Source: Escherichia phage HK75
Length of the DNA: 36,661 bases
Sequence record: HM173637
Reading direction: 5' to 3' (one strand)
Program-made: the position numbers and the translations under genes
Shown: piece by piece, positions 1 through 36,619 of the stretch
How the letters are laid out: each line of letters starts with the position of its first letter
Numbering within the stretch: the stretch's first letter is position 1
Notes under the pieces: generated by a model
Told to the model about the DNA's origin: nothing
Databases searched by the model: none
What the model saw: the letters and a program-made list of their open reading frames with translations, nothing else

Positions 1-49
1 GTTTGAATTTAACGCTAACCCGATTTTTTTAGTTTTAAGGTGTTGACAT

Positions 50-535: not shown

Positions 536-541
536 AAGACT

Positions 542-3330: not shown

Positions 3331-3335
3331 TTTTT

Positions 3336-4025: not shown

Positions 4026-4027
4026 TT

Positions 4028-5185: not shown

Positions 5186-5191
5186 TGGAGG

Positions 5192-5214
5192 GGGCGGGGA
5201 AACCCGCCCTTTTA
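5192..5214 (+). terminator. Intrinsic terminator/attenuator after major capsid gene
   Basis: GGGCGGG-gaaa-CCCGCCC hairpin followed by TTTTAA. Confidence 0.45.
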
Positions 5215-5218
5215 ACGT

Positions 5219-6673: not shown

Positions 6674-6692
6674 CAATTAATTCACCCAACGA

Positions 6693-6719
6693 ACCCGCCA
6701 GATGGCGGGTTTTCTTTTT
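6693..6719 (+). terminator. Hairpin plus T-run upstream of major tail gene
   Basis: ACCCGCC-agat-GGCGGGT followed by TTTTCTTTTT. Confidence 0.35.
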
Positions 6720-6732
6720 CCAGGAGACAGCT

Positions 6733-7437: not shown

Positions 7438-7471
7438 TGGAGATGCCGGGTTGTCCCGGCATGGATAAGCG

Positions 7472-7858
7472 ATGTCGCAAACTTTAAAACAATTAGCCAT
7501 GGCGAAAATGGCTGGCTTTCGCCATAAGACGGTCGTTGTCCCTGAGTGGGAAGGTGTCAAAGTGGTTCTCCGTGAGCCGTCAGGTGAAGCCTGGCTGCGC
7601 TGGCAGGAGGTGGTGAAAGGGGGGGCCGACGATGAAAATGTGTCGGTATCGGAAAAGGCGCACCGTAATCTTTGCGCTGACGTGGTGCTCTTCATTGACG
7701 TTCTGTGTGACACCGATAAGCAACCGGTATTCAGCGTAGACGAAGAAGAGCAGGTGCGTGAAATCTACGGGCCCGTGCACTCACGTCTGCTCAAACAGGC
7801 GCTTGACCTGATCAACAATGCGGACGAAGCGCGGGAAAAGTCTCAACCCCCGGCGTAA
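7472..7858 (+). CDS. Tail assembly chaperone (lambda G-like)
   Basis: 128-aa ORF between major tail and tape measure genes; ends next to a slippery GGGAAAAG run. Confidence 0.6.
   Translation: MSQTLKQLAMAKMAGFRHKTVVVPEWEGVKVVLREPSGEAWLRWQEVVKGGADDENVSVSEKAHRNLCADVVLFIDVLCDTDKQPVFSVDEEEQVREIYGPVHSRLLKQALDLINNADEAREKSQPPA
7833..7840 (+). other. Candidate -1 programmed frameshift site (G to G-T fusion)
   Basis: cGGGAAAAG at the 3' end of the G-like ORF; the downstream ORF is open in the -1 frame from at least 7831. Confidence 0.45.
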
Positions 7859-7866
7859 AGTTTCTG

Positions 7867-8145
7867 ATGTCGCTTGCGCTCCGGATGGGGCGCACGCTCT
7901 CAGAGCTTCGGCAGAATATGACGGCAAGCGAGCTTCTGATGTGGATTGAGTACGACAGGCAAAGCCCGGTTGGCGATATTCGCGGTGATATCCATGCAGC
8001 GCAGATTGTCTCTGCCATCTACGGCTCGCAGGGGGCAAAAGTACCGCTGGACGATGCGATCCTGCGCTGGGGTGGTGATGAGCAATCAGAACCGAAGGAC
8101 CCGTTTGCAGGGCTTGAGGCGGCACTTACAGCTGCGACACAATAA
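7867..8145 (+). CDS. Tail assembly chaperone T-segment, probably expressed only as G-T frameshift fusion
   Basis: 92-aa ORF in the -1 frame relative to G, no convincing own RBS, conserved G/T arrangement of tailed phages. Confidence 0.5.
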   Translation: MSLALRMGRTLSELRQNMTASELLMWIEYDRQSPVGDIRGDIHAAQIVSAIYGSQGAKVPLDDAILRWGGDEQSEPKDPFAGLEAALTAATQ

Positions 8146-8202
8146 TTGCTTCACATGCCTTCAATGTAGCGATACGCTCTTTCCTTAAGTAAAGGAGGCG
8201 TT

Positions 8203-8391
8203 ATGGAACCACTGGTAGTAGTGTTTGGAATATTCGGCTGGCTGATAAATCTAATTGTGATTTTTTATTTATTACGGTTTAGCACAAGGGCAAATGAACA
8301 AGTTGAAGCCCTTAAAGAGATAAATAAAAAGCAAGATGCGCAAATAGATTTATTAATACAAGTCGCTCACCAAAGAAAAGACAGTTTATAA
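8203..8391 (+). CDS. Small single-pass membrane protein (moron A), unknown function
   Basis: 62 aa; AAGGAGG RBS at 8192-8198; N-terminal hydrophobic helix then charged tail with RFSTRANEQVEALKEI motif; AT-rich; own terminator. Confidence 0.5.
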   Translation: MEPLVVVFGIFGWLINLIVIFYLLRFSTRANEQVEALKEINKKQDAQIDLLIQVAHQRKDSL

Positions 8392-8397
8392 CTCACG

Positions 8398-8422
8398 ACC
8401 CGCTATCAAGCGGGTTTTTTTT
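8398..8422 (+). terminator. Intrinsic terminator after moron A
   Basis: ACCCGC-tatcaa-GCGGGT followed by TTTTTTTT. Confidence 0.6.
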
Positions 8423-8434
8423 ATGGGTGAAAAT

Positions 8435-11400: not shown

Positions 11401-11701
11401 CAAAGGAGCGGGTGTGTTTGCAGAGGCTGGACCTGAAGCCATTATGCCGCTTACCCGTGCTGCTGATGGTTCGCTTGGCGTTCGGGCTGTTGGCACTGGT
11501 GGTGGTCAGGCTGTATCTTCGGCTCCACAGGTTTACATCACCATCGATGGCAACGGAAATACTTCCACGCAGACTTCACCCGGCCTTGAGCAATTTGGTG
11601 CTGATGTCGGTAAATATATTGATCAGCGATATAAGCAGAACATCATGCGAGATATTCGGCCTGGCGGTGACATCTGGAACGCAATGAAAGGAACCCGATA
11701 A
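8435..11701 (+). CDS. H: Tail tape measure protein
   Basis: About 1090 aa, Ala/Gln-rich coiled-coil character, between the chaperone genes and M; alternative in-frame ATG at 8423. Confidence 0.85.
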   Translation: MATLRELIIKISANSQSFQSEISRASRMGNDYYRVMQTGGRQSAAASRETQRALAEVTSQINTAKASALGMAGAFAGAFATGHLISLADEWSSVNARLKQASQSSDDFTESQRALMDISQRTGTAFSDNASLFARSAASMREYGYSSEEVLKVTEAISTGLKLSGASASEASSVITQFSQALAQGVLRGEEFNSVNENGDRVIRALAAGMGVARKDLKAMADQGMLTADKVVPALISQLGTMRGEFEAMPQTVSAATTKVENAFMAWVGGANEATGATSTLVAVLNTVSDNIDTVATAAGALAAIGGARYLGGMFGDLGNQTAQLIDARKNEIALAAARAESATQSQRKAAADAIAAERAYQLAQSELVLAKNTNAEATATQNAISKRRAMITANAALVQSNRAVAASQQALNSATSVLGLVKTGATGLLSLVGGLPGILMLGAGAWYTMYQRQEQARESAIQYADTIEQVRDNLKSMSQTQISANLGQANISLDAQNSAIEQQKQKVAELSNQLYNAKLAANSASEGTWLYNDAVEKAADFASELAVEEGRLEQMLNKRKQTQQLINDITDQAINKTVEMAGAVSSLTEMYDRLNKVSRQSTAVSPPKYAGPVLPALDNKQQQAIEKAQRQLELSGLQGLDKARKQAEFDASDLNLPAGWREKYVSMEVESARQLQAIRNSSRHKGGKSEAEKTADTYDKLIKQQKEQIALQGQNTELAKVKYQVSQGELSTLSQAQKAEVMRNAALIDQVKLREQLRNYEANLADSNDSARAANEAQLLGYGQGTRFRERLQEQFNLRKEFEQKNTDLLRQRQAGEIDETFYQQGLALNKRYLEERLRDQEGYYAASDAQRDDWMTGLSEGYANWVDEATDYSSMAADGMKQAMGGAVTSITDMLNGNVDSWKDWGVSVLKIIQNVLVNMAVANGVSSIGSLFSFGASSAAAASSGTAIQNAGANFTFNAKGNVYDSPSLSAYSNGVFQTPQLFAFAKGAGVFAEAGPEAIMPLTRAADGSLGVRAVGTGGGQAVSSAPQVYITIDGNGNTSTQTSPGLEQFGADVGKYIDQRYKQNIMRDIRPGGDIWNAMKGTR

Positions 11702-11703
11702 AA

Positions 11704-12042
11704 ATGGCTATCGAAACTTTCACCTGGTGCCCACGGATTAACGCGGAGGCTGATACAAGTTTCCGCGTCAGAAAAGCCCAGTTTGGCGATGGATATGAGC
11801 AGGTTTCAGGGGATGGATTGAATACCAGAACCCAGCAGTGGACGCTCAACTTTACTGGCAACGAAACCTACATTTCTGCCATTAAATCTTTTCTCGACAG
11901 GCATGAAGGAACGAAAGCCTTTCAATGGAAGCCACCGCTCGAACCTTTGGGTTTGTATCGTTGCGAAACGTATAAACCCACCGGGCTTGGCGCGGGGAAA
12001 TTCAACCTTGAAGCAACATTCATCCAGGCATTTAAACCATGA
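11704..12042 (+). CDS. M: Minor tail protein M
   Basis: 112-aa ORF directly after the tape measure, lambda gene order. Confidence 0.75.
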   Translation: MAIETFTWCPRINAEADTSFRVRKAQFGDGYEQVSGDGLNTRTQQWTLNFTGNETYISAIKSFLDRHEGTKAFQWKPPLEPLGLYRCETYKPTGLGAGKFNLEATFIQAFKP

Positions 12043-12797
12043 GCTTAAACGCAGACTATCAGAAGCTTGAATCCGGAAACGATGTTCGTCTGATTGAGGT
12101 GGACGGTTCTTCCTTTGGGCTAACGGACGTTCTCCGCTTTCACAATTACAGCATTCCCCACACAGAAGCGGAAATCATCGCCGCTGGTGGGGATGAGTCC
12201 AAGCTTCCGGCGAAACCAATCTGGTGGCAGGGAAATGAATACGCCGCCTGGCCGTATCAGCTGGAAGGCCTGGAAAAATCAACCAGTGGGAGCAATGCAA
12301 CGCCATCACTGACGGTTGCGAACATCGAAAGCTCTATTTCTGCCATGTGTCTTGCGTATGACGATCTGCTGCAGGCGAAAGTCACTATTCACGACACAAA
12401 AGAGAAATATCTCGATGCCAGAAATTTCGCGGACGGCAACCCCACAGCAGACCCGACTCAGGAAAAGCTGCAGGTCTGGTATATCGACGGGAAAACTGGC
12501 GAGCTTGCCGGTGAAACCGTTGAATTTGTTCTGTCCAGCCCGATGGACCTGCAGGGGCAAATGATCCCGACGCGACAGCTTCATTCCCTGTGTACCTGGT
12601 GCATCCGAAATAAATATCGTACCGGCGACGGCTGCGACTATGCCGGCACCCGCTATTTCGATAAAAACAACAACCCGGTAAGCGATCCGTCGCTGGATGA
12701 ATGCAATGGCACGCTGACGGCCTGCAAACTCCGATTCGGCGAAAATAACGAACTCTCGTTTGGTGGCTTCCCTGGTACGTCGCTGATCAGGAGTTGA
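12039..12797 (+). CDS. L: Minor tail protein L
   Basis: 252 aa, Cys cluster near the C-terminus (CTWC...C...C) as in lambda gpL, coupled start. Confidence 0.75.
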   Translation: MSLNADYQKLESGNDVRLIEVDGSSFGLTDVLRFHNYSIPHTEAEIIAAGGDESKLPAKPIWWQGNEYAAWPYQLEGLEKSTSGSNATPSLTVANIESSISAMCLAYDDLLQAKVTIHDTKEKYLDARNFADGNPTADPTQEKLQVWYIDGKTGELAGETVEFVLSSPMDLQGQMIPTRQLHSLCTWCIRNKYRTGDGCDYAGTRYFDKNNNPVSDPSLDECNGTLTACKLRFGENNELSFGGFPGTSLIRS

Positions 12798-12798
12798 T

Positions 12799-13509
12799 AT
12801 GCGTCAGAAAACCATCGATGCGATTATGGCGCATGCTGCAGCTGAATATCCTCGTGAGTGTTGCGGCGTGGTGGCGCAAAAGAGCCGGGTAGAGAAATAT
12901 TTTCCATGTAGTAACCTCGCTACCGAGCCGACAGAACATTTTCACCTGTCGCCAGAAGACTATGCAGCTGCTGAGGACTGGGGTACGGTGATCGCCATCG
13001 TTCACAGTCACCCTGACGCCACAACGCAGCCGAGCGAACTGGATAAAGCGCAATGCGACGCAACGCTTTTACCCTGGCATATTGTGAGCTGGCCGGATGG
13101 GGATTTACGCACCATCCAGCCGCGCGGAGAACTGCCACTGCTGGAGCGTCCGTTTGTGCTTGGACACTTCGACTGCTGGGGGCTGGTAATGAGCTATTTC
13201 CGGCAAACGCATGGTATCGAGCTCCACGATTACCGGGTGGATTATCCCTGGTGGGAAAACGCCTATCCGGACAATTTTTATCAGGATTGCTGGTATGAAT
13301 GCGGATTCAGGGAGTTTGACGGCCCGCCTCAGGAAGGGGACCTCGTCATCATGCAGGTGCAGGCCGATAAGTGGAATCATGCCGGGATTTTACTGGAGGG
13401 TAACATGCTGCTGCACCACCTGTACGGACATCTGAGCCAGCGCGTGCCGTATGGGGGCTACTGGCAGGAAAGGACGATGAAGATTCTTAGACATCAGAAT
13501 TTTATTTAA
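12799..13509 (+). CDS. K: Tail assembly protein K (MPN/JAB plus NlpC/P60-like)
   Basis: 236 aa with HSHP motif and conserved Cys/His, lambda K position. Confidence 0.75.
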   Translation: MRQKTIDAIMAHAAAEYPRECCGVVAQKSRVEKYFPCSNLATEPTEHFHLSPEDYAAAEDWGTVIAIVHSHPDATTQPSELDKAQCDATLLPWHIVSWPDGDLRTIQPRGELPLLERPFVLGHFDCWGLVMSYFRQTHGIELHDYRVDYPWWENAYPDNFYQDCWYECGFREFDGPPQEGDLVIMQVQADKWNHAGILLEGNMLLHHLYGHLSQRVPYGGYWQERTMKILRHQNFI

Positions 13510-13556
13510 CAAACTGTCACTGATACTATCGTGTAGCACACAGCAAGGAGAACGAT

Positions 13557-13781
13557 ATGTATACAGTTGGGTTTGGTTGGATCTTCGTCGGTATTTTTAT
13601 TGGGTTAATTCTCTGGTTTTTCATCAACCGCGCCAGCGTCAGAGCGAACAGGCAGGTTGAATTACTTGAGTCTATCGACCAGAAATTATCAAAAATAGTA
13701 GATCCAAACTTCGAGGCAAATAACAAAGACCAGTCGAAAGAAAACTACCTTGAAGAAGCAAGGAAAAAAGCTGGGCTTTGA
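13557..13781 (+). CDS. Small single-pass membrane protein (moron B), paralog of moron A
   Basis: 74 aa; AAGGAG RBS at 13545-13550; TM helix then NRASVRANRQVELLESI motif shared with the 8203-8391 protein; own terminator. Confidence 0.5.
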   Translation: MYTVGFGWIFVGIFIGLILWFFINRASVRANRQVELLESIDQKLSKIVDPNFEANNKDQSKENYLEEARKKAGL

Positions 13782-13796
13782 GAGCGTAAATTAACA

Positions 13797-13820
13797 AACC
13801 ACCTACGGGTGGTTTTTTTT
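13797..13820 (+). terminator. Intrinsic terminator after moron B
   Basis: AACCACC-tacg-GGTGGTT followed by TTTTTT. Confidence 0.6.
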
Positions 13821-13831
13821 ATGGGGGCAGC

Positions 13832-14440
13832 ATGCAAGAGGTAATGACAAGAATTGAGCTAAGTGGCGTGCTAGCTAAGACATATGGAAGGGTTCATCAC
13901 CGTCTGGTTCGCACTACTGCTGAAGCCATTAATGCACTCGCGAAAACCATCAATGGATTCGAGAAATTCTTAAACACAAGCAAGGCCCGAGGGCTGACGT
14001 ATGCCGTTTATAGAGATAAAAAGAATATTGGCGTTGATGATCTCGGCTTTCCCGTCACCGGCGAAGTGATCCGGATTGTCCCTGTAGTAATAGGGAGTAA
14101 AAAGGCTGGTCTTTTGCAGACGATCTTGGGGGCTGTGCTTATTACTGCTGCTGTGTTGACTGGACCAGGCGGTATTGGCGCTGCTTTCGCTGCTGGTGGA
14201 TTGACGGGGTTTGCTGCTGCCACTGGTGCCTCGTTGGTCCTCGGTGGGGTTATTCAGCTGCTTTCACCGCAGCCATCAGGCATAGCCAGTAAACAAAGCG
14301 CAGATAACCGTGCATCGTATGCGTTTGGCGGGGTAACCAACACTGCAGCGCAAGGCTACCCGGTGCCTCTGCTTTATGGTAAGCGTCGAATCGGCGGAGC
14401 GATTATTTCTGCCGGAATTTATGTCGAAGATCAGCAGTAG
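13832..14440 (+). CDS. I: Tail assembly protein I
   Basis: 202 aa with Gly/Ala-rich hydrophobic C-terminal half, between K and J as in lambda. Confidence 0.7.
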   Translation: MQEVMTRIELSGVLAKTYGRVHHRLVRTTAEAINALAKTINGFEKFLNTSKARGLTYAVYRDKKNIGVDDLGFPVTGEVIRIVPVVIGSKKAGLLQTILGAVLITAAVLTGPGGIGAAFAAGGLTGFAAATGASLVLGGVIQLLSPQPSGIASKQSADNRASYAFGGVTNTAAQGYPVPLLYGKRRIGGAIISAGIYVEDQQ

Positions 14441-14459
14441 ATAACTAACCTTTTTTCTG

Positions 14460-14481
14460 GCCACCTTCGGGTGGCTTTTTT
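14460..14481 (+). terminator. Hairpin plus T-run between I and J
   Basis: GCCACC-ttcg-GGTGGC followed by TTTTTT. Confidence 0.5.
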
Positions 14482-14492
14482 ATGGGCGCAAT

Positions 14493-17400
14493 ATGGCTAC
14501 AGATAAAGTGTTAAAAGGCCGCAAGGGCGGCAGCTCAAGTTCCCGAACCCCTACCGAACAGCCTGATGATCTGCAATCTGTAGCGAAGGCAAAGATCCTC
14601 GTTGCGCTTGGGGAAGGGGAGTTTGCTGGACAGCTCACCGGGAAGGATATCTACCTGGACGGAACAGCGCTGGAGAATGCTGACGGCTCCCAAAACTTCA
14701 GCGGGGTAACGTGGGAGTTTCGCGCGGGAACGCAGGCGCAAAAATATATTCAGGGTATTCCCGGTACCGAAAACGAGATCAGCGTAGGAACTGAGGTATC
14801 AAGTGCCACAGCCTGGACGCGCACGTTTACCAATACGCAGCTTTCAGCAGTTCGCCTGCGTCTTAAATGGCCCTCGCTTTTCAAACAGGAAGACGACGGC
14901 GATCTGGTGGGTTACTCGGTCAATTATGCGATTGACCTGCAGACGGACGGCGGCACATGGCAGACGGTACTCAATACCAGCGTGACCGGAAAAACGACGT
15001 CTGGTTATGAGCGCAGCCACCGCATCGATTTACCGCAGGCTGGCAGCACCTGGACAATCCGCCTGCGTAAGATTACCTCTGACGCCAACAGCGCGAAGAT
15101 CGGCGACACGATGACGCTGCAGAGCTTCACTGAGGTTATTGACGCCAAGTTACGATATCCAAACACAGCGTTACTCTACATCGAATTCGATTCAAGCCAG
15201 TTTAACGGCTCTATCCCGCAGATCTCCTGCGAGCCCCGCGGCCGTGTTATCCGCGTTCCTGATACCTACGACCCTGAAACCCGCACTTATAGCGGTACAT
15301 GGACCGGTGCGTTTAAGTGGGCATGGACGGATAACCCTGCGTGGATTTTTTACGATCTGGTTGTTTCTGACCGGTTCGGCCTTGGGCACCGTTTGACCGC
15401 TGCGAATATTGATAAATGGACGCTTTATCAGGTTGCTCAGTATTGTGATCAGATGGTACCAGACGGCAAAGGGGGCAACGGTACAGAACCACGCTATACC
15501 TGCAACGTGTACATTCAGGACCGGAACGACGCCTACACAGTCCTACGTGATTTTGCCGCTATCTTCCGTGGCATGACCTACTGGGGCGGGGATCAGATTG
15601 TGGCCCTGGCTGACATGCCGCGCGATGTTGATTACAGCTATACGCGCGCTAACGTTGTTGGCGGTCGCTTCACCTATTCGAGCAGCACCACGAAAAGCCG
15701 CTACACCACAGCGCTGGTTTCATGGTCAGACCCGGGTAACGCTTATGCCGACGCGATGGAGCCGGTATTTGAGCAGGCGCTGGTGGCGCGGTACGGCTTC
15801 AATCAGCTGGAAATGACAGCCATCGGCTGCACCAGGCAGTCAGAGGCGAACCGAAAGGGGCGCTGGGGTATTCTCACCAATAACAAGGATCGCGTTGTTT
15901 CGTTTGATGTCGGGCTGGACGGAAACATTCCGCAGCCTGGCTACATCATCGCCGTGGCAGACGAGCTGCTTTCCGGAAAGGTTATGGGCGGCCGCATCAG
16001 CGCCGTTAACGGTCGCGTTATCAAACTTGACCGCGTAGCTGATGCAGCACCAGGTGATCGCCTTATTCTCAACCTTCCCTCCGGAGCGTCGCAGAGCAGG
16101 ACCATTCAGGCCGTGAACGGGGAATCAGTCACAGTCACCACGGCATACAGTGAGACGCCACAGGCCGAAGCTGTTTGGGTGGTTGAATCTGACGAGCTCT
16201 ACGCGCAGCAGTATCGAGTTGTCAGCGTTTCCGATAACGGGGATGGCACTTTCTCAATCACCGGCGCATGGCACGACCCGGATAAATATGCCCGTATCGA
16301 TACCGGAGCCATCATTGACCAGCGGCCGGTGAGCGTGATTCCGCCGGGTAACCAGTCGCCGCCTGCGAACATCGTGATCAGCTCGTTTTCCGTGGTTCAG
16401 CAAAATATCAGCGTCGAAACAATGCGCGTGAGCTGGGACCAGGCGCAGAACGCTATCGCCTATGAAGCGCAATGGCGCCGCAACGACGGGAACTGGGTTA
16501 ACGTGCCGCGCACCTCCACCACGTCATTCGACGTCCCGGGGATTTATGCCGGGCGCTACCTGGTGCGGGTGCGCGCAATCAATGCCGCAGAAATTTCATC
16601 CGGATGGGGCTATTCAGAAGAGAAAACGCTGACGGGTAAAGTGGGCAATCCACCTAAGCCGGTTGGCTTCATCGCTTCTGAAAATGTGGTTTTCGGCATC
16701 GAGCTGAACTGGGGATTCCCGGCGAATACCGACGACACGCTGAAGACGGAAATTCAGTACAGCCTGACCGGTACTGAAGACGATGCCATGCTGCTGGCCG
16801 ATGTGCCTTACCCGCAGCGCAAATATCAGCAGATGGGCCTTAAGGCTGGGCAGATTTTCTGGTACCGCGCGCAGCTGGTTGACCGCAGCGGTAACGAGTC
16901 AGGTTATACCGGCTGGGTTCGTGGGCAGGCCAGTATCGATGTTTCTGACATCACAGATGTGATCCTTGAAGACATCAAAGGGTCTGAGACGTTCAAAGAC
17001 CTGATCGAGAACGCTGTGGACAGCAATGAAAAAATTGCTGGCATGGCTGACGACATCAAACAGGCCAACGATGAACTTGAACTCCAGGCGCAGGAAATCG
17101 CAAAAAACGCGCAGGACATCGGGCAGGTTCAGACCAGCGTTAATGAGCTTTCTAGCACGGTCGGTGATGTGTCGTCTTCTCTCTCAGATCTTGAGCAGAC
17201 TGTTGCGACTGCTGATACCGCACTGGGCCAGCGAATCGACAGCATCAGCGTGTCTATGGACGGCATGACGGGCGGGGTGAAGAACTCTGCTATCGCAATT
17301 ATCCAGAACGGGCTGGCACAAGTGGCTACGCGTAAATCGTTGTCAGCTTCGGTCGCAGGGAACAGTGCGCAGCTGGATCGTATTGATGAGGTAATCGTTA

Positions 17401-18045: not shown

Positions 18046-18348
18046 ATGGCTTATGGAATACAGACCTGGGATGCTTCAGGAAAACCCAACAACTATGGCA
18101 TCAAACCCGTTTCCGTCGTTGGGCGAATACAGCTGGCTGCCGGGCAAACCTCCGGCAGCTGGTCTTTTACGGTGCCCTCAGGAATGAAAGTTGGTTTTGT
18201 TCTTTCACTTGATGAAGGAGGTAACAGCGTAGGGCGGCGCATTGTCGCGTCAGGGAGCACAATAACCGTAAGCGCTGCATCTTCTGTAGGTCTGGGTAAT
18301 TATCCGGCCTCAAAGTGTGAAGTGGTCGTTTTCATGGAGAAAGCATAA
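18046..18348 (+). CDS. Hypothetical protein downstream of J
   Basis: 100-aa ORF coupled to the J stop; shares a WD-x-SGK motif with the next ORF. Confidence 0.4.
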   Translation: MAYGIQTWDASGKPNNYGIKPVSVVGRIQLAAGQTSGSWSFTVPSGMKVGFVLSLDEGGNSVGRRIVASGSTITVSAASSVGLGNYPASKCEVVVFMEKA

Positions 18349-18986
18349 TGGCCGAATTTGGCGCGATGATATTAATGGACAACGGGAACCCATTTGTAAC
18401 GCCCCAGTCAACGCCTTTTTGTCTTTACGGCAAGTACACTTTCAACTCCTCTGCTAATGGCAGTTCGCAGCAGGTTACTCAGAATATTGCATTAAATGCT
18501 GACTACCCTGTGATGGTATTTATCAGGACCACAAATACCGCCCAGCCCACGCCAGTAATATCTTACCGGAACGGCGGGAATATATATGTCGCGGGGGTTA
18601 ATCCCTATAACCAGAGCTTCACGTTAACCGCATATATTTTTGCCATATTTCCCCAGACGTTACCGAAATGGGGGATGGCCATCTGGGATTCGAGCGGGAA
18701 GCTGGTACTCACTAATGAGTCCCGCGTGCTGTCAGACTTGCAGACAATCGGAACGCCTGGAGCAAACGGCGGGATTAACATTGACCAGACGCTTGATGGT
18801 TCATGGGCAGTGGCTCCATCAAGGCTGGGGCAAGTGAACAGAAACGACGCTTACTCATCTTGTAGGTATTCAGGCACAAGTACAAGAATAAACGCCGGTA
18901 CAGCCGCAAATACACCTGGCGGTGCTGGAGGGGTGATAAATAATGGAATTATCCTGACAGCAATTAAAACAGACGCCTATGATTGA
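18348..18986 (+). CDS. Hypothetical protein with internal repeat of the preceding ORF's domain
   Basis: 212 aa, start overlaps the preceding stop; contains two motif copies (MILMDNGNP and MAIWDSSGK). Confidence 0.4.
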   Translation: MAEFGAMILMDNGNPFVTPQSTPFCLYGKYTFNSSANGSSQQVTQNIALNADYPVMVFIRTTNTAQPTPVISYRNGGNIYVAGVNPYNQSFTLTAYIFAIFPQTLPKWGMAIWDSSGKLVLTNESRVLSDLQTIGTPGANGGINIDQTLDGSWAVAPSRLGQVNRNDAYSSCRYSGTSTRINAGTAANTPGGAGGVINNGIILTAIKTDAYD

Positions 18987-19327: not shown

Positions 19328-19346
19328 CTCATGATTTTCAATGCAA

Positions 19347-19372
19347 ACCTCGCCTCGGCGGGGTTTTTTATT
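19347..19372 (+). terminator. Terminator-like hairpin after the lipoprotein gene
   Basis: GC-rich imperfect stem (CCTCGCC...GGCGGGG) followed by TTTTTTATT. Confidence 0.35.
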
Positions 19373-19385
19373 GCCTGGAGAAAAT

Positions 19386-20687
19386 ATGCTTTATAACACT
19401 GGAACCATCGCCATTAACGGAAACAGCGCCACCGGCACGGGCACGAACTGGACGGCACCCGCCAGCCAGGTTCGCGCTGGCCAGACGATTATCGTGATGT
19501 CTAACCCGGTGCAGCTGTTTCAGATTTCATCCGTGAACAGCGCCACGTCAATGACGGTTACTCCAGCTGCTTCCCCTGCGCTGAGCGGCCAGAAGTACGG
19601 CATTCTGGTATCAGACAATATCTCGGTCGACGGACTGGCACAGGCGATGTCTCAGCTCATCAAAGAGTATGACGAGAATATTGGCGCATGGGAGACGTTC
19701 GCTACTACCTCAGCAAACCAGAGCATCACGGTAACTATAAACGGCACCCCCGTGACTATCCCCGGCATCGGTAAGCTGGCACAGAAAGGAACCAACGGTG
19801 CTCTCCCGATTGACCAGGGCGGGACTGGTGCAACTAACGCTGCAGACGTTCGCACAAACCTCAGTTTGGGAAGTAGCGCTTTATTGGATGCTCAAAGTTC
19901 CTGGAGTGATTCCGGTCAAAAGAAAGTTCTAACTGTGGGGGCTTTTGGTCTGGGGCGTGAAATTACTGAATCAGTTCCACTTAATACTATGAGCGAGTAC
20001 TACCCCTCATCGTTTATATGGTCGGTAGAGGACGCCAGCTACATGGGTGTCTCAGGAAGTCAGAACATTACCTCTATCGTAATAGCTCGCGGAGGAAGAC
20101 CAACTCGCATTCATCAAATATACACGTTAGGGAGGACTTTCTTCAGTTACCGAACACCTACAGGGTGGCTGTATCAGGAAGCCTACACAACGGGGAACAC
20201 CACTAAGGCGAGCGATGGCACGCTAAAAGCGGCTTCACCAGTTGCCCGCATAGTAACGAGTCGCGATGCATGCCAGCGCGCTGACGTAGCAGAAGATGGT
20301 TTCTCCTGGTGCGGCTGCGGGACAGCAAACGCAGAGGCGGAGGGCATAACCCTTTCTCGCCTTGAGGCGGGTGTTTACCAGCTGACAGGTTCAGCAGGCC
20401 TGGCATCGGAGGGATGGCAACTACTGCCCCCAATGGACCCTGGCGGCATGGGAGAACTGGGCGTGGTTGAGGCAGAGAAAACCGATAACGGCGAACTGAC
20501 AATCCGTCTGTTTAAGCGCAAATACATGCTGGGCGATGAAGGTGAGATTGTAAAAACAAAAGGGGAGCCTATCGACGTACCGGCTAACAGCTGGATTGAT
20601 GTTCGGCTGGACATGCCTGAAAACAGCGTCTGGAATCAGCGCCAGAAAGAGGCGATGGCAAAAGAGACTCAGGAACCTGCTTCGTAA
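19386..20687 (+). CDS. Tail fibre protein
   Basis: 434 aa from the ATG at 19386 (GGAG RBS at 19377-19380); Gly/Thr/Ser-rich, N-terminus typical of fibre anchoring domains; last structural gene before attP. Confidence 0.55.
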   Translation: MLYNTGTIAINGNSATGTGTNWTAPASQVRAGQTIIVMSNPVQLFQISSVNSATSMTVTPAASPALSGQKYGILVSDNISVDGLAQAMSQLIKEYDENIGAWETFATTSANQSITVTINGTPVTIPGIGKLAQKGTNGALPIDQGGTGATNAADVRTNLSLGSSALLDAQSSWSDSGQKKVLTVGAFGLGREITESVPLNTMSEYYPSSFIWSVEDASYMGVSGSQNITSIVIARGGRPTRIHQIYTLGRTFFSYRTPTGWLYQEAYTTGNTTKASDGTLKAASPVARIVTSRDACQRADVAEDGFSWCGCGTANAEAEGITLSRLEAGVYQLTGSAGLASEGWQLLPPMDPGGMGELGVVEAEKTDNGELTIRLFKRKYMLGDEGEIVKTKGEPIDVPANSWIDVRLDMPENSVWNQRQKEAMAKETQEPAS

Positions 20688-21019: not shown

Positions 21020-21065
21020 ATTCGTAATGCGAAGGTCGTAGGTTCGACTCCTATTATCGGCACCA
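21020..21065 (+). other. attP core: 3' 46 nt of a tRNA-Thr(CGU) gene (anticodon loop to CCA end), thrW-like
   Basis: ATTCGTAATGCGAAGGTCGTAGGTTCGACTCCTATTATCGGCACCA: anticodon loop with CGT, T-arm GTAGG-TTCGACT-CCTAT, acceptor 3' strand plus ACCA; no matching 5' half upstream. Confidence 0.75.
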
Positions 21066-21079: not shown

Positions 21080-22240
21080 TTACCTAGCATTTAAGTAAAC
21101 TACGTTCTCCTCTTGTGCCGTATTTGTGCCATTGCGACTTATAATCGCATCGATTTTGCTCGCGTGCTCGGTGAGATGCCCGGCTGAAAGGTGGGCGTAT
21201 CTTTGAACCATTTCGAGAGTTTCCCATCCTCCCATCTCTTTAAGTGCAAGAAGAGAGACACCGGACTGAACCAGCCAGCTTGCCCAAGTATGCCTCAGGT
21301 CATGGAAGCGGAAGTTGCTAATGCCTGCCCGCTTTAACGCTCCCTTCCATGCCTTGTTGCTGTCGGTTCTCATCTTCCTTACCGATGCTGTTTTTGTTCC
21401 GTCGCTTCGGTAGGCAGGTTTGGTGTGGACAAACACCCATCTCTTATGGAGACCCTGCTGTTTTCTTAATATCTGGCATGCGGTTTCGTTAAGAGGAACT
21501 CCGATCGCATTGCCAGCTTTTGTTTCATCAGGGTGCATCCATGCCATTTTCTTATCCAGATCGACCTGTGACCACTCAAGGTCTGTAACGTTGGAACGGC
21601 GAAGGCCTGTCGTGATTGCAAACATGACCACAGGGAAGAAATGAGGAGCAATTTCTGCAAACAGGCGCTTCGATTCCTCCTCTGTAAGCCATCTGATCCG
21701 TCCATTCTTAACGCGTGGTGTTGATATTTTTGGCGCCCTGTCAAGCCATCCCCATTCAACAGCCATATTGAGAATAGCGCGAAGTATTGCCAGATGCCGC
21801 GTCTTCGTTCCTTTGCTTGCCAGCTTTGGTTTATACTCCGGCACTGGCTTGCCAAGCCGCAAACACCTGTCCCGGCTCATTTCCCAGTTCAGGCGATGGC
21901 GGCGGTTTTCCATCCCGTCTACCGCCTCCATTATTTTTTCTGATGTTATGTCTGAGAGAATGGTTTCTCTGAAGTGCAACATCCAGAACGATATAATGCT
22001 CTTGTCATCATCAATGGACTTCTTATCCGATTTCTCTCGCAGCCACCGTATGCAGGCTTCCTTGAATAGCTTTTTCGGTGATTCCCCGAGATTTTTTACT
22101 CTCCACGCTTCTGCTTTCAGACGATCGTGAAGTTCTTGCGCTTGCCTTTTGTCCGATGTTTCAAGAGAGCGTCTAACTCTTGATCCATCTGGCGCGACGA
22201 AATCACAGTGCCACGTGCCACCGCGTAGTTTGATTGACAT
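21080..22240 (-). CDS. int: Tyrosine integrase (P22-like, tRNA-Thr-specific)
   Basis: 386 aa; C-terminal FHDLRHTWASWLVQ...RYAHL with catalytic R-H-R-Y signature; recalled strong resemblance to P22 Int; adjacent to the tRNA-derived att core. Confidence 0.9.
   Translation of the reverse strand: MSIKLRGGTWHCDFVAPDGSRVRRSLETSDKRQAQELHDRLKAEAWRVKNLGESPKKLFKEACIRWLREKSDKKSIDDDKSIISFWMLHFRETILSDITSEKIMEAVDGMENRRHRLNWEMSRDRCLRLGKPVPEYKPKLASKGTKTRHLAILRAILNMAVEWGWLDRAPKISTPRVKNGRIRWLTEEESKRLFAEIAPHFFPVVMFAITTGLRRSNVTDLEWSQVDLDKKMAWMHPDETKAGNAIGVPLNETACQILRKQQGLHKRWVFVHTKPAYRSDGTKTASVRKMRTDSNKAWKGALKRAGISNFRFHDLRHTWASWLVQSGVSLLALKEMGGWETLEMVQRYAHLSAGHLTEHASKIDAIISRNGTNTAQEENVVYLNAR
21113..21128 (+). 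repeat. Integrase arm-type site candidate (P' arm)
   Basis: TTGTGCCGTATTTGTG, direct repeat of 20896-20911. Confidence 0.5.
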
Positions 22241-25530: not shown

Positions 25531-25640
25531 AATAAGACCTCAACTCTTTTCCACCCGTCACGTAATTTACGGGTGATTCGTTCAAGTAAAGATTCGGAAG
25601 GGCAGCCAGCAACAGGCCACCCTGCAATGGCATATTGCAT
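25515..25640 (-). CDS. cIII: cIII-like FtsH inhibitor
   Basis: MQYAIAGWPVAGCPSESLLERITRKLRDGWKR matches the recalled lambda cIII N-terminal/central region; 41 aa from the internal ATG of the 25515-25742 ORF. Confidence 0.6.
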   Translation of the reverse strand: MQYAIAGWPVAGCPSESLLERITRKLRDGWKRVEVLLCAMK

Positions 25641-25703
25641 GGTGTGCTCCTTATTTATACATAACGAAAAACGCCTCTCGTGAAGCGTTATTGGTATGCA
25701 TAT

Positions 25704-25727
25704 AAAAAGGCCCTCACACTGGAGGGC
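25704..25727 (-). terminator. Intrinsic terminator (tL1-like) between the N-like gene and cIII
   Basis: On the minus strand GCCCTC-cagtgt-GAGGGC followed by CTTTTTATAT. Confidence 0.4.
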
Positions 25728-25869
25728 AAAGAAGACTTCCAATAATCAGAACAAGTCGGCTCCTGTTTAGTTACGAGCGACATTGCTCCGTGTATTCACT
25801 CGTTGGAATGAATACACAGTGCAGTGTTTATTCTGTTGTTTGCGTGAAAATGAAATCTGCCTAAGCGGG

Positions 25870-26208
25870 TTATGACCACTTTTTGTTTGGGTTTCGTTGG
25901 TGAGCGTGATTAACAACTCTGTGCATTACATCCTCATATTTTTCATCTTCAATTTTTTCGACATCGCGAGGAAATGGTGTTGCTAATGCTTTGTCAACTT
26001 TGTCCATTGGGTCTTCATTAATCTTATATTCCGGACCGTCATCTATAGCATTAAATCCAGGTGTTACACCGTTTTCTAATGCATATGCCATTCTCTTTTC
26101 CCATCTCGCTATTCTCCTCCTGTCTTGAGATGTAAGGCATCTATCAGATACTTTTCTGTTTTGTCCGCGGTCAGGATTAACATAAATAGTCTTTTTCACC
26201 ATAAGCAT
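25870..26208 (-). CDS. Putative N-like antitermination protein
   Basis: First gene leftward of the repressor; basic Arg-rich segment SQDRRRIARWEKR near the N-terminus; ORF-track start at 26214 is TTG, first ATG at 26208. Confidence 0.3.
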   Translation of the reverse strand: MLMVKKTIYVNPDRGQNRKVSDRCLTSQDRRRIARWEKRMAYALENGVTPGFNAIDDGPEYKINEDPMDKVDKALATPFPRDVEKIEDEKYEDVMHRVVNHAHQRNPNKKWS

Positions 26209-26566
26209 ACTCAATAAGCACCGTACGGTAGTTTACTGTACAATTTTATTTTTTGGACTGCATGTATTTTGTTTCCTAATGGGTTTGAATCTTTGCAATA
26301 AATACTTCTATTTTTTCGAACGACTTCTATATCAAAAAGCTGCTTTGCTTTTTGTGACTAAAAGCAAAAAAGCCTTCTCGCTAATGAGCAGCATTGCCGT
26401 TCATCCTGAACCCGCCGCGCTCCCGACGCATGGTTTAAAGACGCGCCGTTCGTCTATGGGCTTATGATGTACCTAAAGTTCATTAATGTAAAGTACCAGT
26501 AGTACATTTTATGGGTATAAAAAGCTCACTACATCATAAGTTAGTGAACTTTAAGGAAATTTATTT

Positions 26567-27274
26567 TTATCCGAATCGCTTGTAATCGATTGACTGCCTA
26601 ATGAGGACTTTGGCTAGAATGTGAAGTTGCTCTTCTTCACCTTCTTCTATGTACCATCGATCATAAGCGGCATTGTCAGAGATGACGGCAAGCCTGTTCT
26701 TTTGCATTTGCAGGCGCTTAACGTGCATTGTTTTCCCGTATACAAACACATAAATGCCATCGCCATCAAAACAGGTTATGGATACATCAACAAAGATCTC
26801 ATCTCCCGGATTGATGGTTCCCTCCATGCTGTCACCGCGAACCGTGATGACTTTTACGCTTTCCTGTGGCCTTCCATTAAATAAAATTCTTGCCTGCTCG
26901 GTCGTATATTCAATTGCTCTTATCTTTTCTATAAATTCATTGGAAACCATGGTTCCTGGCCCGGCGCTCGCCTGAACATCCAATACATCAACACGATAAG
27001 AATCATTTGATCTTGATAGATGATTTACCGTGATACCGTCATCATCAGCATAGCCATGCAGATATGCCGCAGTGGTTCCCAGCACCGAAGCCAGAGATTC
27101 CATCTTGTCTTTTCTTGGTATTGACTCCCCGTTGAACCATTTACTAATGGCTTTTGGTGTGACCTTAAGCCTGACAGCTAAATCAGCCTGCCTACCATGC
27201 AAAGGTAATCCCGCTTTATCACAGGTCAGCGCAAGCCTCTGCGAGAAAGTTTCACGCTCTTTCTGTTGAACCAT
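26567..27274 (-). CDS. cI: cI-like prophage repressor (HTH plus S24 LexA-type peptidase domain)
   Basis: 235 aa from ATG 27274; N-terminal HTH; C-terminal GDSM Ser and VKRL Lys dyad; start codon lies inside an operator repeat (leaderless-type). Confidence 0.85.
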   Translation of the reverse strand: MVQQKERETFSQRLALTCDKAGLPLHGRQADLAVRLKVTPKAISKWFNGESIPRKDKMESLASVLGTTAAYLHGYADDDGITVNHLSRSNDSYRVDVLDVQASAGPGTMVSNEFIEKIRAIEYTTEQARILFNGRPQESVKVITVRGDSMEGTINPGDEIFVDVSITCFDGDGIYVFVYGKTMHVKRLQMQKNRLAVISDNAAYDRWYIEEGEEEQLHILAKVLIRQSIDYKRFG

Positions 27275-27283
27275 AAGTTCAAC
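27267..27283. promoter_or_regulatory. Operator candidate OR-a
   Basis: TGAACCATAAGTTCAAC containing palindrome TGAAC-N5-GTTCA; identical core repeated at 27324-27340. Confidence 0.55.
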
Positions 27284-27294
27284 TATATTAGGTA

Positions 27295-27323
27295 TTGACT
27301 GTACTATCAGTTCCGTCATAATA
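27295..27323 (+). promoter_or_regulatory. pR-like promoter for cro
   Basis: TTGACT (-35), 17-bp spacer, ATAATA (-10); next operator copy overlaps the predicted start site. Confidence 0.55.
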
Positions 27324-27340
27324 TGAACCATAAGTTCACC
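27324..27340. promoter_or_regulatory. Operator candidate OR-b
   Basis: TGAACCATAAGTTCACC, second copy of the 15-bp palindromic core. Confidence 0.55.
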
Positions 27341-27353
27341 ACAGGAGAGAAGC

Positions 27354-27575
27354 ATGAACGAAGTTACGTTTGCAGACGTTATCAAATCCGTTCGAGTTTC
27401 TGTTGTGGCTGAGGTTTGTGGCCTGACTCCAAAAGCCGTTTACAAGTGGCTGGAGAAAGGGGGATTGCCGCGTACAGAATTCACTGATGAAACTGACTAC
27501 GCGAAAAAAATCTCTCGTGCATCTGGCGGCAAATTCTCAACCGCACTGATTAAGCGAGTCGGAAAAGCAGCATAA
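27354..27575 (+). CDS. cro: Cro-like repressor
   Basis: 73 aa, divergent from cI, AGGAG RBS, HTH segment AEVCGLTPKAVYKWL. Confidence 0.7.
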   Translation: MNEVTFADVIKSVRVSVVAEVCGLTPKAVYKWLEKGGLPRTEFTDETDYAKKISRASGGKFSTALIKRVGKAA

Positions 27576-32908: not shown

Positions 32909-33093
32909 ACGCCACAATTCAAACGATACCAGAGCTTCTTATCCAGACGCGAGGCAATCAGACCGAAGTGGCGAGGATGCTTTCCTGCGCAAGAGGAACA
33001 GTGCTCAAGTACAACCGAGACAGCAAAGGCGAGCGTCACGTAATAGTTAACGGCGTCCTGATGGTCAAACAGGGCAAAAGGGGAAGACGATGA
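32905..33093 (+). CDS. ninH: NinH-like small DNA-binding protein
   Basis: 62 aa, GNQTEVARMLSCARGTVLKY resembles recalled lambda NinH. Confidence 0.55.
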   Translation: MNATIQTIPELLIQTRGNQTEVARMLSCARGTVLKYNRDSKGERHVIVNGVLMVKQGKRGRR

Positions 33094-33608
33094 GCATAAG
33101 AGAGCTAAACCTCACCAAAGAACAGCACGATTGGCTGAATTGCTGGCTTGAACTGTGGGGCGCATGGGTTTATTCAGGTCGTCTGGAAAAGCGCATGAGC
33201 AGCGTAATAGCGAAGTTCATGGAGAGCGTAGAGCCGGGAAGAGTTATGACAAGGCCAATGTGCAATGATGATGATGGAATGTTGATTTCTCAGGTCGTCG
33301 ATTCCGTCATGTACATTGACAAGAAAGCCTTCGGCATCCTCCTCAGCTACTACGCTCATGGTTCATCTAAGCGAGCAATTGCATCCTACTATCACGCGAC
33401 TGCAAAGCCACGCAAGATGTGTGGACGTGGTGGCGAGGGATGGAGAAAACCTTCACTGGCAACCTGTAGAAACGAAATTGACGACATCCTGAAAGCGTCG
33501 TTATTTGTTTTGTACCAGCCAATGCAAAATGCTTTCAAAATGCGTAAACGTGTTGAGAAAGTTAAGCATGTTGCTGTTAAAAGCCTTGACATGCAATTAT
33601 CCATTTAG
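33090..33608 (+). CDS. Putative late-gene antiterminator (Q-like)
   Basis: 172 aa, last gene before a strong promoter-hairpin-T-run unit and the lysis cassette; several Cys; position-based call. Confidence 0.4.
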   Translation: MSIRELNLTKEQHDWLNCWLELWGAWVYSGRLEKRMSSVIAKFMESVEPGRVMTRPMCNDDDGMLISQVVDSVMYIDKKAFGILLSYYAHGSSKRAIASYYHATAKPRKMCGRGGEGWRKPSLATCRNEIDDILKASLFVLYQPMQNAFKMRKRVEKVKHVAVKSLDMQLSI

Positions 33609-33615
33609 CCATAAT
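33586..33615 (+). promoter_or_regulatory. pR'-like late promoter
   Basis: TTGACA (33586-33591), 18-bp spacer, CATAAT (33610-33615). Confidence 0.45.
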
Positions 33616-33625
33616 TAGAAGGTAA

Positions 33626-33667
33626 GCTGCCGTTAGTGACTCTTAAGTTGCAACGGTGGCTTTTTTT
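33626..33667 (+). terminator. tR'-like terminator shortly downstream of the late promoter
   Basis: GC-containing inverted repeat (GCCGTT...AACGGTGGC) followed by TTTTTTTGTTTG. Confidence 0.4.
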
Positions 33668-33745
33668 GTTTGCACAACAGGTAAGAGCATTGAACCCGCA
33701 GACCTCGCGGAATTGGTGAAAGGTGCCGCGCAGTGCTCTTATCGA

Positions 33746-33872
33746 TGTGGTGAAGCTCAATGGCGAGCTAACAGATAGGCGACAGTGAAAATACTAGTCA
33801 TGTAGCTGACCGCCGCGCGTACTGCAATCGGCAGCGCACCGATGGAAGCCGGTTCGATTCCGGCCGCCACAA
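33746..33872 (+). pseudogene. tRNA-like element / disrupted tRNA (all four arms present, ~59-nt insertion between D-arm and anticodon arm)
   Basis: Acceptor TGTGGTG pairs 7/7 with CGCCACA; D-arm GCTC-AATGGC-GAGC; anticodon-like arm ATCGG-CAGCGCA-CCGAT; T-arm GCCGG-TTCGATT-CCGGC; lacks U8 and U33. Confidence 0.3.
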
Positions 33873-34117
33873 CCCAAACTGAGCCGTAGCCACTGGCTAT
33901 CCTGAATTCATCAGTGATAGTTACGCTGCGGCCTTCTACACATGACCTTCGTGAAAGCGGGTGGCAAGAGGCTGCGCTAACAACCTCCTGCCGTTTTGCC
34001 AGTGCATATCGGTCACGAACAAATCTGATTACTAAACACAGTAACCTGGATTTGTTCTATCAGTAATCGACCTTATTCCTAATTAAATAGAGCAAATCCC
34101 CTTATTGGGGGTAAGAC

Positions 34118-34441
34118 ATGAAGATGCCAGAAAAAAATGACCTGTTAGCCGCCATTCTCGCGGCAAAGGAACAAGGCATCGGGGCAATCCTTGCGTTTGC
34201 AATGGCGTACCTTCGCGGCAGATATAATGGCGGTGCGTTTACAAAAACAGTAATCGACGCAACGATGTGCGCCATTATCGCCTGGTTCATTCGTGACCTT
34301 CTCGGCTTCGCCGGACTAAGTAGCAATCTCGCTTATATAACGAGCGTGTTTATCGGCTACATCGGTACTGACTCGATTGGTTCGCTTATCAAACGCTTCG
34401 CTGCTAAAAAAGCCGGAGTAGAAGATGGTGGAAATCAATAA
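34118..34441 (+). CDS. S: Class I holin (lambda S-like, dual-start)
   Basis: 107 aa beginning MKMPEK (Met1/Met3 dual-start motif), three TM segments, near-identical to recalled lambda S. Confidence 0.9.
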
Positions 34442-34901
34442 TCAACGTAAGGCGTTCCTCGATATGCTGGCATGGTCAGAGGGAACTGATAACGGACGTC
34501 AGAAAACCAGAAATCATGGTTATGACGTCATTGTAGGAGGAGAGCTATTCACTGATTACTCCGATCACCCTCGCAAACTTGTCACGCTAAACCCCAAACT
34601 CAAATCAACAGCCGCCGGACGCTACCAGCTTCTTTCCCGTTGGTGGGATGCCTACCGTAAGCAGCTTGGCCTGAAAGACTTCTCTCCGAAAAGCCAGGAC
34701 GCTGTGGCATTGCAGCAGATTAAGGAGCGTGGCGCTTTGCCGATGATTGATCGTGGTGATATTCGTCAGGCAATTGACCGTTGCAGCAATATCTGGGCTT
34801 CACTGCCGGGCGCTGGTTATGGTCAGTTCGAGCATAAGGCTGACAGCCTGATTGCAAAATTCAAAGAGGCTGGCGGAACGGTCAGAGAGATTGAGGTATG
34901 A
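34425..34901 (+). CDS. R: Endolysin (lambda R-like lytic transglycosylase)
   Basis: 158 aa, near-identical to recalled lambda R. Confidence 0.9.
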
Positions 34902-35335
34902 GCAGAGTCACCGCGATTATCTCCGCTCTGGTTATCTGCATCATCGTCTGCCTGTCATGGGCGGTTAATCATTACCGTGATAACGCCATCTCCTACAAAG
35001 AGCAGCGCGATAAAGCCACATCCATCATCGCTGATATGCAGAAGCGTCAACGTGATGTAGCAGAACTCGACGCCAGATACACAAAGGAGCTTGCTGATGC
35101 TAACGCGACTATCGAAAGTCTCCGTGCTGATGTTTCTGCTGGTCGTAAGCGCCTGCAAGTCGCCGCCACCTGTGCAAAGTCAACGACCGGAGCCAGCGGC
35201 ATGGGCGATGGAGAAAGCCCAAGACTTACAGCAGATGCTGAACTCAATTATTACCGTCTCCGAAGTGGAATCGACAAGATAACCGCGCAGGTTAACTACC
35301 TGCAGGAATACATCAGGACGCAATGCCTGAAATAA
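34898..35335 (+). CDS. Rz: i-spanin Rz
   Basis: 145 aa, N-terminal TM helix, coiled-coil periplasmic domain, follows R. Confidence 0.8.
35091..35282 (+). CDS. Rz1: o-spanin Rz1 lipoprotein embedded in Rz (+1 frame)
   Basis: Signal peptide with lipobox ending in Cys (LVVSAC), Pro-rich mature region, entirely within Rz. Confidence 0.7.
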
Positions 35336-35367
35336 TTTTTTTGCAAATCACAAAGTCAATTTAATGA

Positions 35368-35392
35368 GCCTCGCGAAAAGCGGGGCTTTTTT
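35368..35392 (+). terminator. Intrinsic terminator after the lysis cassette
   Basis: GCCTCGC-gaaaa-GCGGGGC followed by TTTTTT. Confidence 0.55.
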
Positions 35393-35543
35393 ATGTCCGC
35401 AGTAAACCGCGCATTCTCGTGCGCATATCAACCAAGAGCTTTTCGGGATATGAGACAGAGACAGGACGGTGGCTTACATCGTGCCGCTCTTGGGCTGTCC
35501 ATGTCTGCGAGAACTGGCTCATATCACCAAAAAGGTAAATACG

Positions 35544-35840
35544 ATGTCCAATATCATCCCGATTGATTTCGAAGGCCATCCCATGCGTTTTTCTGACGAT
35601 GGCTGGTTTGACGCGACTGCGGCAGCTGACAAGTTCAACAAGGAGCCGGCTCAGTGGCTTAGGCTTCCTGAGACTGTCCGTTACATCGAGGCGTTAAAGA
35701 GTAGATATGGGAATATCACATATGTAAAAACCAGCCGCGCTCGCAAAGACCGTGGTGGCGGACTGATGGAAAGACATCGGTTATTGCAGAGGTCATTCAA
35801 TGAGTGGTCTCGACAATGGCTTATACCCTACACGGGATAA
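35544..35840 (+). CDS. KilA-N domain protein (tentative)
   Basis: 98 aa from ATG 35544; IIPIDFEGHPMRF...DGWFDATAAADKFNKEPAQWLRL pattern resembles KilA-N/APSES-type domains. Confidence 0.4.
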   Translation: MSNIIPIDFEGHPMRFSDDGWFDATAAADKFNKEPAQWLRLPETVRYIEALKSRYGNITYVKTSRARKDRGGGLMERHRLLQRSFNEWSRQWLIPYTG

Positions 35841-36606: not shown

Positions 36607-36619
36607 GGGGGGGGGGGGG
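36607..36619. repeat. Homopolymeric G13 tract in the putative cos region
   Basis: 13 consecutive G between the last ORF and the window end; flanked by GCGGCGGCGG (36523-36535) and its inverted copy CCGCCGCC (36651-36658). Confidence 0.6.

Follow-up and report, generated by a model that had tools for sequence, protein, structure and literature searches.

A lambdoid S-R-Rz/Rz1 lysis cassette of the HK97-group hybrid form in Escherichia phage HK75

The four-gene lysis module of lambdoid phages and its reassortment have been described by Villafane et al. 2008 (PMC2629481), as has the integration of P22 at thrW. Here we analyze this module in Escherichia phage HK75, using the whole 36,661-nucleotide (nt) sequence of record HM173637, one strand read 5' to 3', which we call the window. 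The module, or lysis cassette, lies at 34118-35335 and has already been described for HK75 itself. In the survey by Kongari et al. 2018 (PMC6139136), HK75 falls in the lambda Rz inner membrane spanin (i-spanin) family and in the HK97 outer membrane spanin (o-spanin) family, which is separate from the Lambda o-spanin family, and the spanins of HK75 and HK544 are identical.

A first-pass annotation, made from the letters of the sequence, had read the whole cassette as near-identical to lambda and as a mark of recent exchange in a genome with HK97-like head genes. We are nearly certain that the region holds the canonical lysis cassette of a lambdoid late operon, in the hybrid version that HK97-group phages typically carry. 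It is intact and ordinary and looks functional, a textbook case of lambdoid mosaicism with nothing new. Its parts are as follows.

34118-34441, + strand: S, 107 amino acids, holin/antiholin of the class I lambda family
34425-34901, + strand: R, 158 amino acids, lambda-type endolysin (lytic transglycosylase)
34898-35335, + strand: Rz, 145 amino acids, hybrid i-spanin
34932-35011, + strand: crossover zone within Rz, a segment conserved among the three types, marking the change from lambda-type to P22-type identity
35097-35282, + strand: Rz1, 61 amino acids, o-spanin lipoprotein of P22/HK97 type

Makeup of the lysis cassette

We compared the cassette gene by gene with the reference genomes of lambda, HK97, and P22, and we profiled identity along it in a 60-nt sliding window. 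Open reading frame (ORF) coordinates confirmed the positions previously given for S, R, Rz, and Rz1. S and R overlap by 17 nt and R and Rz by 4 nt, Rz1 is nested within Rz in the +1 frame, and all four proteins have PHROG matches. The similarities are not due to chance, with BLAST E-values of 0. Near-identity to lambda holds for S (104/107 residues, 98.8% at the nucleotide level) and R (156/158 residues, 96.6%) only. It fails for Rz (90/144 residues, 62.5%) and Rz1 (23/58 residues, 39.7%), both of which are of P22/HK97 type.

S belongs to Pfam PF05106, the lambda holin family (E 1.4e-29; 102.9 bits against a cutoff of 23.8), and matches HK97 S at 102/106 residues and P22 gp13 at 87.9%. It starts with MKMPEK, as in lambda, and has the Met1-Lys2-Met3 motif of a putative dual start, from which antiholin S107 and holin S105 would be made, the latter beginning at 34124. 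Hydrophobic stretches were found at residues 9-26 and 42-68 by a crude hydropathy scan; the 97% identity to lambda S points to the same topology of three transmembrane segments and the same control of hole timing. As a side observation, three of the four codon differences from lambda S change the amino acid (H7N, D63G, and R105G), as do 2 of the 16 in R. N7 and G105 are also present in mEpX2, and G105 is found in most relatives. We ruled out the S substitutions, D63G in particular, as private changes of special interest, because the exact S protein is present on 632 contigs.

R is identical at all 158 residues to HK97 gp71 and to its mEpX2 counterpart. It aligns over residues 1-158 with the solved structure of lambda lysozyme, PDB 1AM7 (E 2.6e-105), with 2 differences, and residue 19 is the catalytic glutamate. 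P22 has an endolysin, gp19, of unrelated sequence (21% amino acid identity, 39% at the nucleotide level).

Rz belongs to Pfam PF03245 (E 1.4e-36) and is a composite. Over the full protein it is 96.6% identical to HK97 Rz (140/145) and 91.0% identical to P22 gp15. Codons 1-31 share 97.8% of nucleotides with lambda, 97.8% with HK97, and 77.4% with P22; from codon 32 to the end the values are 55.9%, 96.2%, and 95.4%. The N-terminal membrane anchor has 31 residues identical to those of lambda Rz, and the periplasmic domain is of the P22 gene 15/HK97 type. A hydrophobic stretch spans residues 1-27, and Cys92 and Cys143 are present. The protein is recorded as ADO67681.1, and its exact sequence also occurs in another Hendrixvirinae phage. 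Rz1, in Pfam PF06085 (E 2.2e-20), matches P22 Rz1 at 57/61 residues (93.4%); it has the lipobox VSAC with its cysteine at residue 20 and lacks a second cysteine.

The change of type within Rz is sharp. In the sliding profile, identity to lambda is 92-100% from about 33880 to 34990 and 40-70% thereafter, while identity to P22 rises to 95-100% over about 34930-35290. For HK97 the profile mostly remains at 92-100% between about 33970 and a point past 35500, apart from the S start, where it drops to 80-85%. Clustered mismatches to P22 end at 34931 and are followed by scattered single ones; mismatches to lambda become dense past 35011, with 21 extra nucleotides in lambda at 35014. On its right side the lambda-like block thus ends inside a gene, within Rz codons 12 to 38 or so, contrary to the earlier expectation of exchange at module boundaries. 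The lambda/P22 junction in Rz is a known one: a 48-nt feature of Sf6 annotated "bsq7; boundary sequence" corresponds to 34967-35014 of the window. The boundary-sequence concept used here rests on that Sf6 annotation and, reportedly, on papers by Clark (2001) and Casjens (2004); our literature search on "boundary sequences" gave no match.

In functional terms the crossover is sensibly placed. The Rz segment that encodes the binding partner of Rz1 also contains the Rz1 gene, so both interacting parts are necessarily inherited together. Because the crossover falls between the Rz anchor and the periplasmic domain, that domain and the nested Rz1 stay a matched pair. Lambda-type S, R, and Rz anchor are joined to a P22-type Rz periplasmic domain and Rz1 at a conserved segment of about 80 base pairs (bp).

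Near-identity to proteins studied by experiment suggests a familiar order of events. The antiterminator Q, here of phage-21 type, would let RNA polymerase from the late promoter pR' read through the terminator tR' into S-R-Rz/Rz1. S would be made from its two starts, and the S105/S107 ratio, together with accumulation, would set the timing of the hole. S would build up in the inner membrane, trigger, and form large holes. R, a soluble transglycosylase, could then exit through these holes and cleave the murein, after which the complex of Rz in the inner membrane and Rz1, an outer membrane lipoprotein, would disrupt the outer membrane.

Continuity with the HK97-type head genes

The genus Saikungvirus, in the Hendrixvirinae, has HK75 as its type, and HK75 shows the marks of this subfamily: terminase, portal, protease, major capsid, and tail genes of HK97 type, together with the cos ends. 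The head genes were correctly recognized as HK97-like in the first-pass annotation; they belong to one long module.

1-14448, + strand: HK97-type packaging, head, and tail-shaft module, 98.7% identical at the nucleotide level to HK97 1-14450

The HK75 termini are identical to the HK97 cos ends. At the other end of the window, 33947-35762 is 97.1% identical to HK97, and from 33947 the HK97-like sequence extends through cos as far as 17913, continuous but for two breaks: a deletion at 35752-35762 and an HK97 segment that is absent at about 14450. Taken on a circular or concatemeric map, the lysis and head genes are one contiguous, inherited HK97-like late-operon block. The supposed contrast between a lambda-like cassette and an HK97-like head did not survive this comparison, as HK97 has the same hybrid cassette in a block that continues through cos. 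The contrast is not due to exchange in HK75, because HK97 itself has lambda-type S and R; it arises from comparing with lambda.

The Rz genes of HK97, mEpX2, and Sf6 align end to end with that of HK75, with 5 to 13 scattered mismatches, and the hybrid is common to them. The same junction is present in HK97, HK022, Sf6, epsilon34, CUS-3, and dozens more phages, and therefore predates HK75. We infer that it is old and was probably inherited together with the HK97-type head genes. The recent exchange proposed earlier is accordingly not borne out.

In a different account, S, R, Rz, and Rz1 would form one lambda module, a recent import into a genome whose head is of HK97 type, by exchange at module boundaries. 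Such an import would explain why S and R are 97-99% identical to the lambda proteins, why the 250 nt before S are closer to lambda (96%) than to HK97 (70%), and why only about 1 kb of lambda aligns elsewhere in the window. It does not fit the P22 type of Rz1 and of Rz past codon 31 or so, nor an HK97 cassette that is the same at 97.1% of nucleotides, identical in R, and continuous with the head genes through cos. The intragenic right edge, found at the same junction in dozens of phages, also speaks against it, and we consider an import of this kind very improbable. Still harder to credit is a fresh recombination in HK75 itself as the origin of the Rz hybrid. The identity switch is indeed sharp, falling within about 80 bp, but HK97, mEpX2, and Sf6 carry the same hybrid, Sf6 has the boundary annotated, the exact Rz occurs in another Hendrixvirinae phage, and the spanins of HK75 and HK544 are identical (PMC6139136). 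Equally implausible is a decaying, non-functional prophage remnant that resembles lysis genes: a truncated KilA-N gene lies downstream and the 36.7-kb genome is shorter than those of relatives, but none of the four ORFs is shortened, the start motif, catalytic Glu19, lipobox, and membrane anchor have all been preserved, R is identical to the HK97 endolysin, both HK97-type cos ends are present, and HK75 is an isolated phage.

A few points weigh against the reading of an ordinary, inherited hybrid cassette. R gave no Pfam match at E ≤ 0.01; its PDB and PHROG matches are nonetheless decisive for the assignment. The lysis mechanism outlined above is drawn from near-identity to lambda and P22 proteins, and the age of the junction from its shared position in many phages, not from phylogeny.

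Several differences from HK97 were seen within or beside the block. Relative to HK97, about 948 bp (approximately HK97 37884-38831) are deleted at 35752-35762, between two copies of GTGG(C/T)GGCGGA. This deletion truncates a KilA-N-domain gene (ORF 35544-35840), which encodes 243 amino acids in HK97 and a 98-amino-acid fusion in HK75, and it also removes the ORF that follows. The exact truncated KilA-N protein was not found in a collection of 15 billion proteins. At the second break, at 14448-14460, similarity jumps from HK97 14450 to 15108; the missing segment, HK97 14451-15107 (658 bp), holds the gp22/gp23 "moron" genes, annotated at HK97 14475-14975. Positions 3001-4000, covering the end of the portal gene and the start of the protease gene, are 89.8-96% identical to HK97 and 99.6-100% identical to mEpX2, and are a small mosaic patch in an otherwise approximately 100% identical head module. 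Positions 36607-36619, close to the right cos end, are a run of 13 G where HK97 and mEpX2 have 9; either a length polymorphism of the homopolymer or an artefact of sequencing could account for this.

The significance of these results is slight beyond correct annotation, and their main use is as a correction. HK75 Rz and Rz1 should not be annotated or modelled as lambda Rz and Rz1, and the lysis genes of HK75 are not a foreign insert relative to its HK97-type head genes.

Flanking control elements and the mosaic elsewhere

The cassette is preceded by a late control region and followed by a probable terminator, with the following elements.

33090-33608, + strand: Q, late antiterminator of phage-21/Sf6 type, not of lambda/HK97 type
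33586-33615, + strand: late promoter pR' (TTGACA, 18-nt spacer, CATAAT), overlapping the 3' end of Q
33613-33669, + strand: putative qut and leader terminator tR', placed by Sf6/phage 21 homology, with predicted function
33746-33874, + strand: tRNA-shaped element of about 130 nt, between tR' and S
33868-34117, + strand: lambda-type leader before S, the left edge of the lambda-like block
35366-35393, + strand: terminator-like hairpin and T-run just downstream of Rz, with presumed function

Similarity to HK97 breaks off at 33094 and returns at 33947. Q matches Pfam PF06530 (E 1.3e-25) and PHROG 943 (E 1.1e-92), and its region is 97.7% identical at the nucleotide level to Sf6 gene 59, annotated as "similar to phage 21 Q". 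The promoter agrees with 11 of 12 consensus positions and has one mismatch to the Sf6 feature described as "nearly identical to phage 21 late promoter". Coordinates for qut and tR' were transferred by alignment from the Sf6 annotation (qut at 2123-2171 and terminator at 2135-2179 of Sf6 sequence L006), with which they agree almost perfectly, and a hairpin followed by a T-run at 33620-33673 gave a weak terminator-like Rfam match. The leader matches lambda 44936-45185 at 240/250 nt (96.0%), HK97 at 70%, and P22 at 58%, and its final 60 nt before S are 100% identical to lambda. They include a hairpin, CCCC-TTATT-GGGG, at 34098-34111 just upstream of the S starts, in the position of lambda sdi, which we take to have the putative role that sdi has in lambda. 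Downstream of Rz, the 35366-35393 hairpin has a nine-pair stem (6 G-C) followed by TTTTAT, in a region 97-100% identical to HK97.

The tRNA-shaped element has a 7-bp acceptor stem, a D-like arm, a perfect T-arm (GCCGG-TTCGATT-CCGGC), and an over-long middle. It occupies the place of tRNA-Asn and tRNA-Thr in Sf6 and phage 21, in a segment of about 200 bp, and is kept at 97-98% in phages 611R6, 683R2, and PDP110P1/P2 and in one E. coli prophage. Lambda-like sequence starts at its 3' end, at 33868, and continues into S. ARAGORN at default settings called no tRNA gene between Q and S, and relaxed settings gave weak, inconsistent calls only; an Rfam search at a permissive threshold yielded a tmRNA match limited to 17 nt of the T-arm, a terminator-like match, and nothing else. 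The predicted fold is tRNA-shaped, with a z-score of -1.6 that is not significant. On these grounds we rejected the element as a tRNA gene and treated it as a remnant. There is a small chance that the element is instead expressed as a working tRNA-like RNA, one that might, for example, help to process or stabilize the late transcript.

The same region carries an insertion in related prophages. The thrW prophage of E. coli Z1323CEC0012 has an insert of about 700 bp with an HNH endonuclease gene exactly between the pR' -10 hexamer and the leader (L008 18908-19611; the site equals 33615/33622 of the window), and in HK629, too, an HNH gene lies between Q and S. The arrangement resembles a free-standing endonuclease gene placed where the late transcript begins. 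We rejected the HNH gene as an intron inside the tRNA-shaped element, as it sits at the pR' start.

Across the 36.7-kb window, 2.2 kb aligned to lambda, 3.0 kb to P22, 25.4 kb to HK97, and 25.6 kb to mEpX2; outside the lysis region, only about 1 kb of lambda aligns. These partial alignments bear out the description of the genome as a lambdoid mosaic. HK633 matches 98% of the length of the left arm, at 98.1% identity. In the collections searched, coverage of the right arm does not exceed 73% for any phage record and stays below 80% for every complete E. coli genome. Similarity to any single phage is therefore not uniform within these collections, since no phage record or complete E. coli genome covers 80% or more of that arm.

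Integration functions were identified as P22-like in the first pass, and this was upheld.

21020-21065, + strand: attP core, 46 nt
21080-22240, - strand: tyrosine integrase of P22/SfX (thrW) type, Pfam PF00589

The integrase is identical to P22 Int at 207/380 residues (54%; E 1e-157) and to lambda and HK97 Int at about 23%; at the nucleotide level it is 99.8-100% identical to the mEpX2 integrase, annotated as SfX-integrase-like. The attP core matches both P22 attP and the 3' end of the E. coli thrW tRNA-Thr gene at all 46 nt. The related prophage in E. coli Z1323CEC0012 adjoins the tRNA-Thr gene downstream of proA (thrW).

The two ORFs that follow J (18046-18348 and 18348-18986), together with the cor region, share 99.8% identity with mEpX2 gp22-gp24. 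These mEpX2 genes carry annotations as homologues of HK022 p24/p25 and as the Cor exclusion protein, and they are absent from HK97. The cassettes after J, earlier taken for novel ones sitting at module boundaries, are thus the known HK022-type cassette. The tail-fibre protein (19341-20687) is recorded as ADO67651.1/YP_004934131.1. No nucleotide match to lambda, HK97, P22, or mEpX2 was found for the immunity region, 26001-27500, which contains a 272-amino-acid ORF on the minus strand at 26567-27385; repressor specificity therefore comes from another lambdoid lineage. The only Rfam match above its gathering score was the lambda cIII thermoregulator element, RF01804, at 25595-25653 on the minus strand (88.5 bits), within a lambda-like patch at 25548-25841 that is 96-98% identical to lambda.

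Comparison with known systems

The best full-length matches to 34118-35335 all came from HK97-group phages, namely ECP1, HK542, mEpX2, HK446, HK544, HK022, HK140, IME10, and HK97, at 97-98.8%, followed by P22-like phages such as CUS-3, epsilon34, and g341c; these matches and others span 96.6-98.8%. Among 5426 complete E. coli genomes, 745 cover at least 80% of the cassette query and 4840 contain parts of it.

The HK97 cassette, consisting of the gp70 holin, the gp71 endolysin, Rz, and an embedded Rz1, has the same genes, order, overlaps, and Rz junction as that of HK75. HK022, HK542, mEpX2, and ECP1 have copies of the HK97 cassette, and mEpX2 is 99% identical to HK75 across S and R. HK97 S differs at its N terminus (MKMPEKMTV..., 106 amino acids), whereas the HK75 N terminus is lambda-like. 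The control regions also differ, as Q and pR' are of phage-21 type in HK75 and of lambda type in HK97 and mEpX2.

HK75 shares with lambda an identical dual-start motif, an identical hairpin ahead of S, and the way in which Rz1 is embedded in Rz. The Rz periplasmic domain of HK75, however, lacks 7 codons of lambda Rz, HK75 Rz1 lacks the second cysteine found in lambda Rz1, and no bor gene lies downstream, unlike in lambda. In P22 (13-19-15-Rz1), Rz and Rz1 are akin to those of HK75 and the holin is 87.9% identical, whereas the endolysin gp19 is unrelated and the N-terminal 11 residues of Rz differ.

Sf6 genes 59-64 have the same combination as HK75: phage-21-type Q, pR', qut, and tR', lambda-type S and R, and P22-type Rz and Rz1, with 94.6-99.1% nucleotide identity across Q and the lysis genes. 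Sf6 differs in having tRNA-Asn and tRNA-Thr between tR' and S, and its virion is P22-like, not HK97-like.

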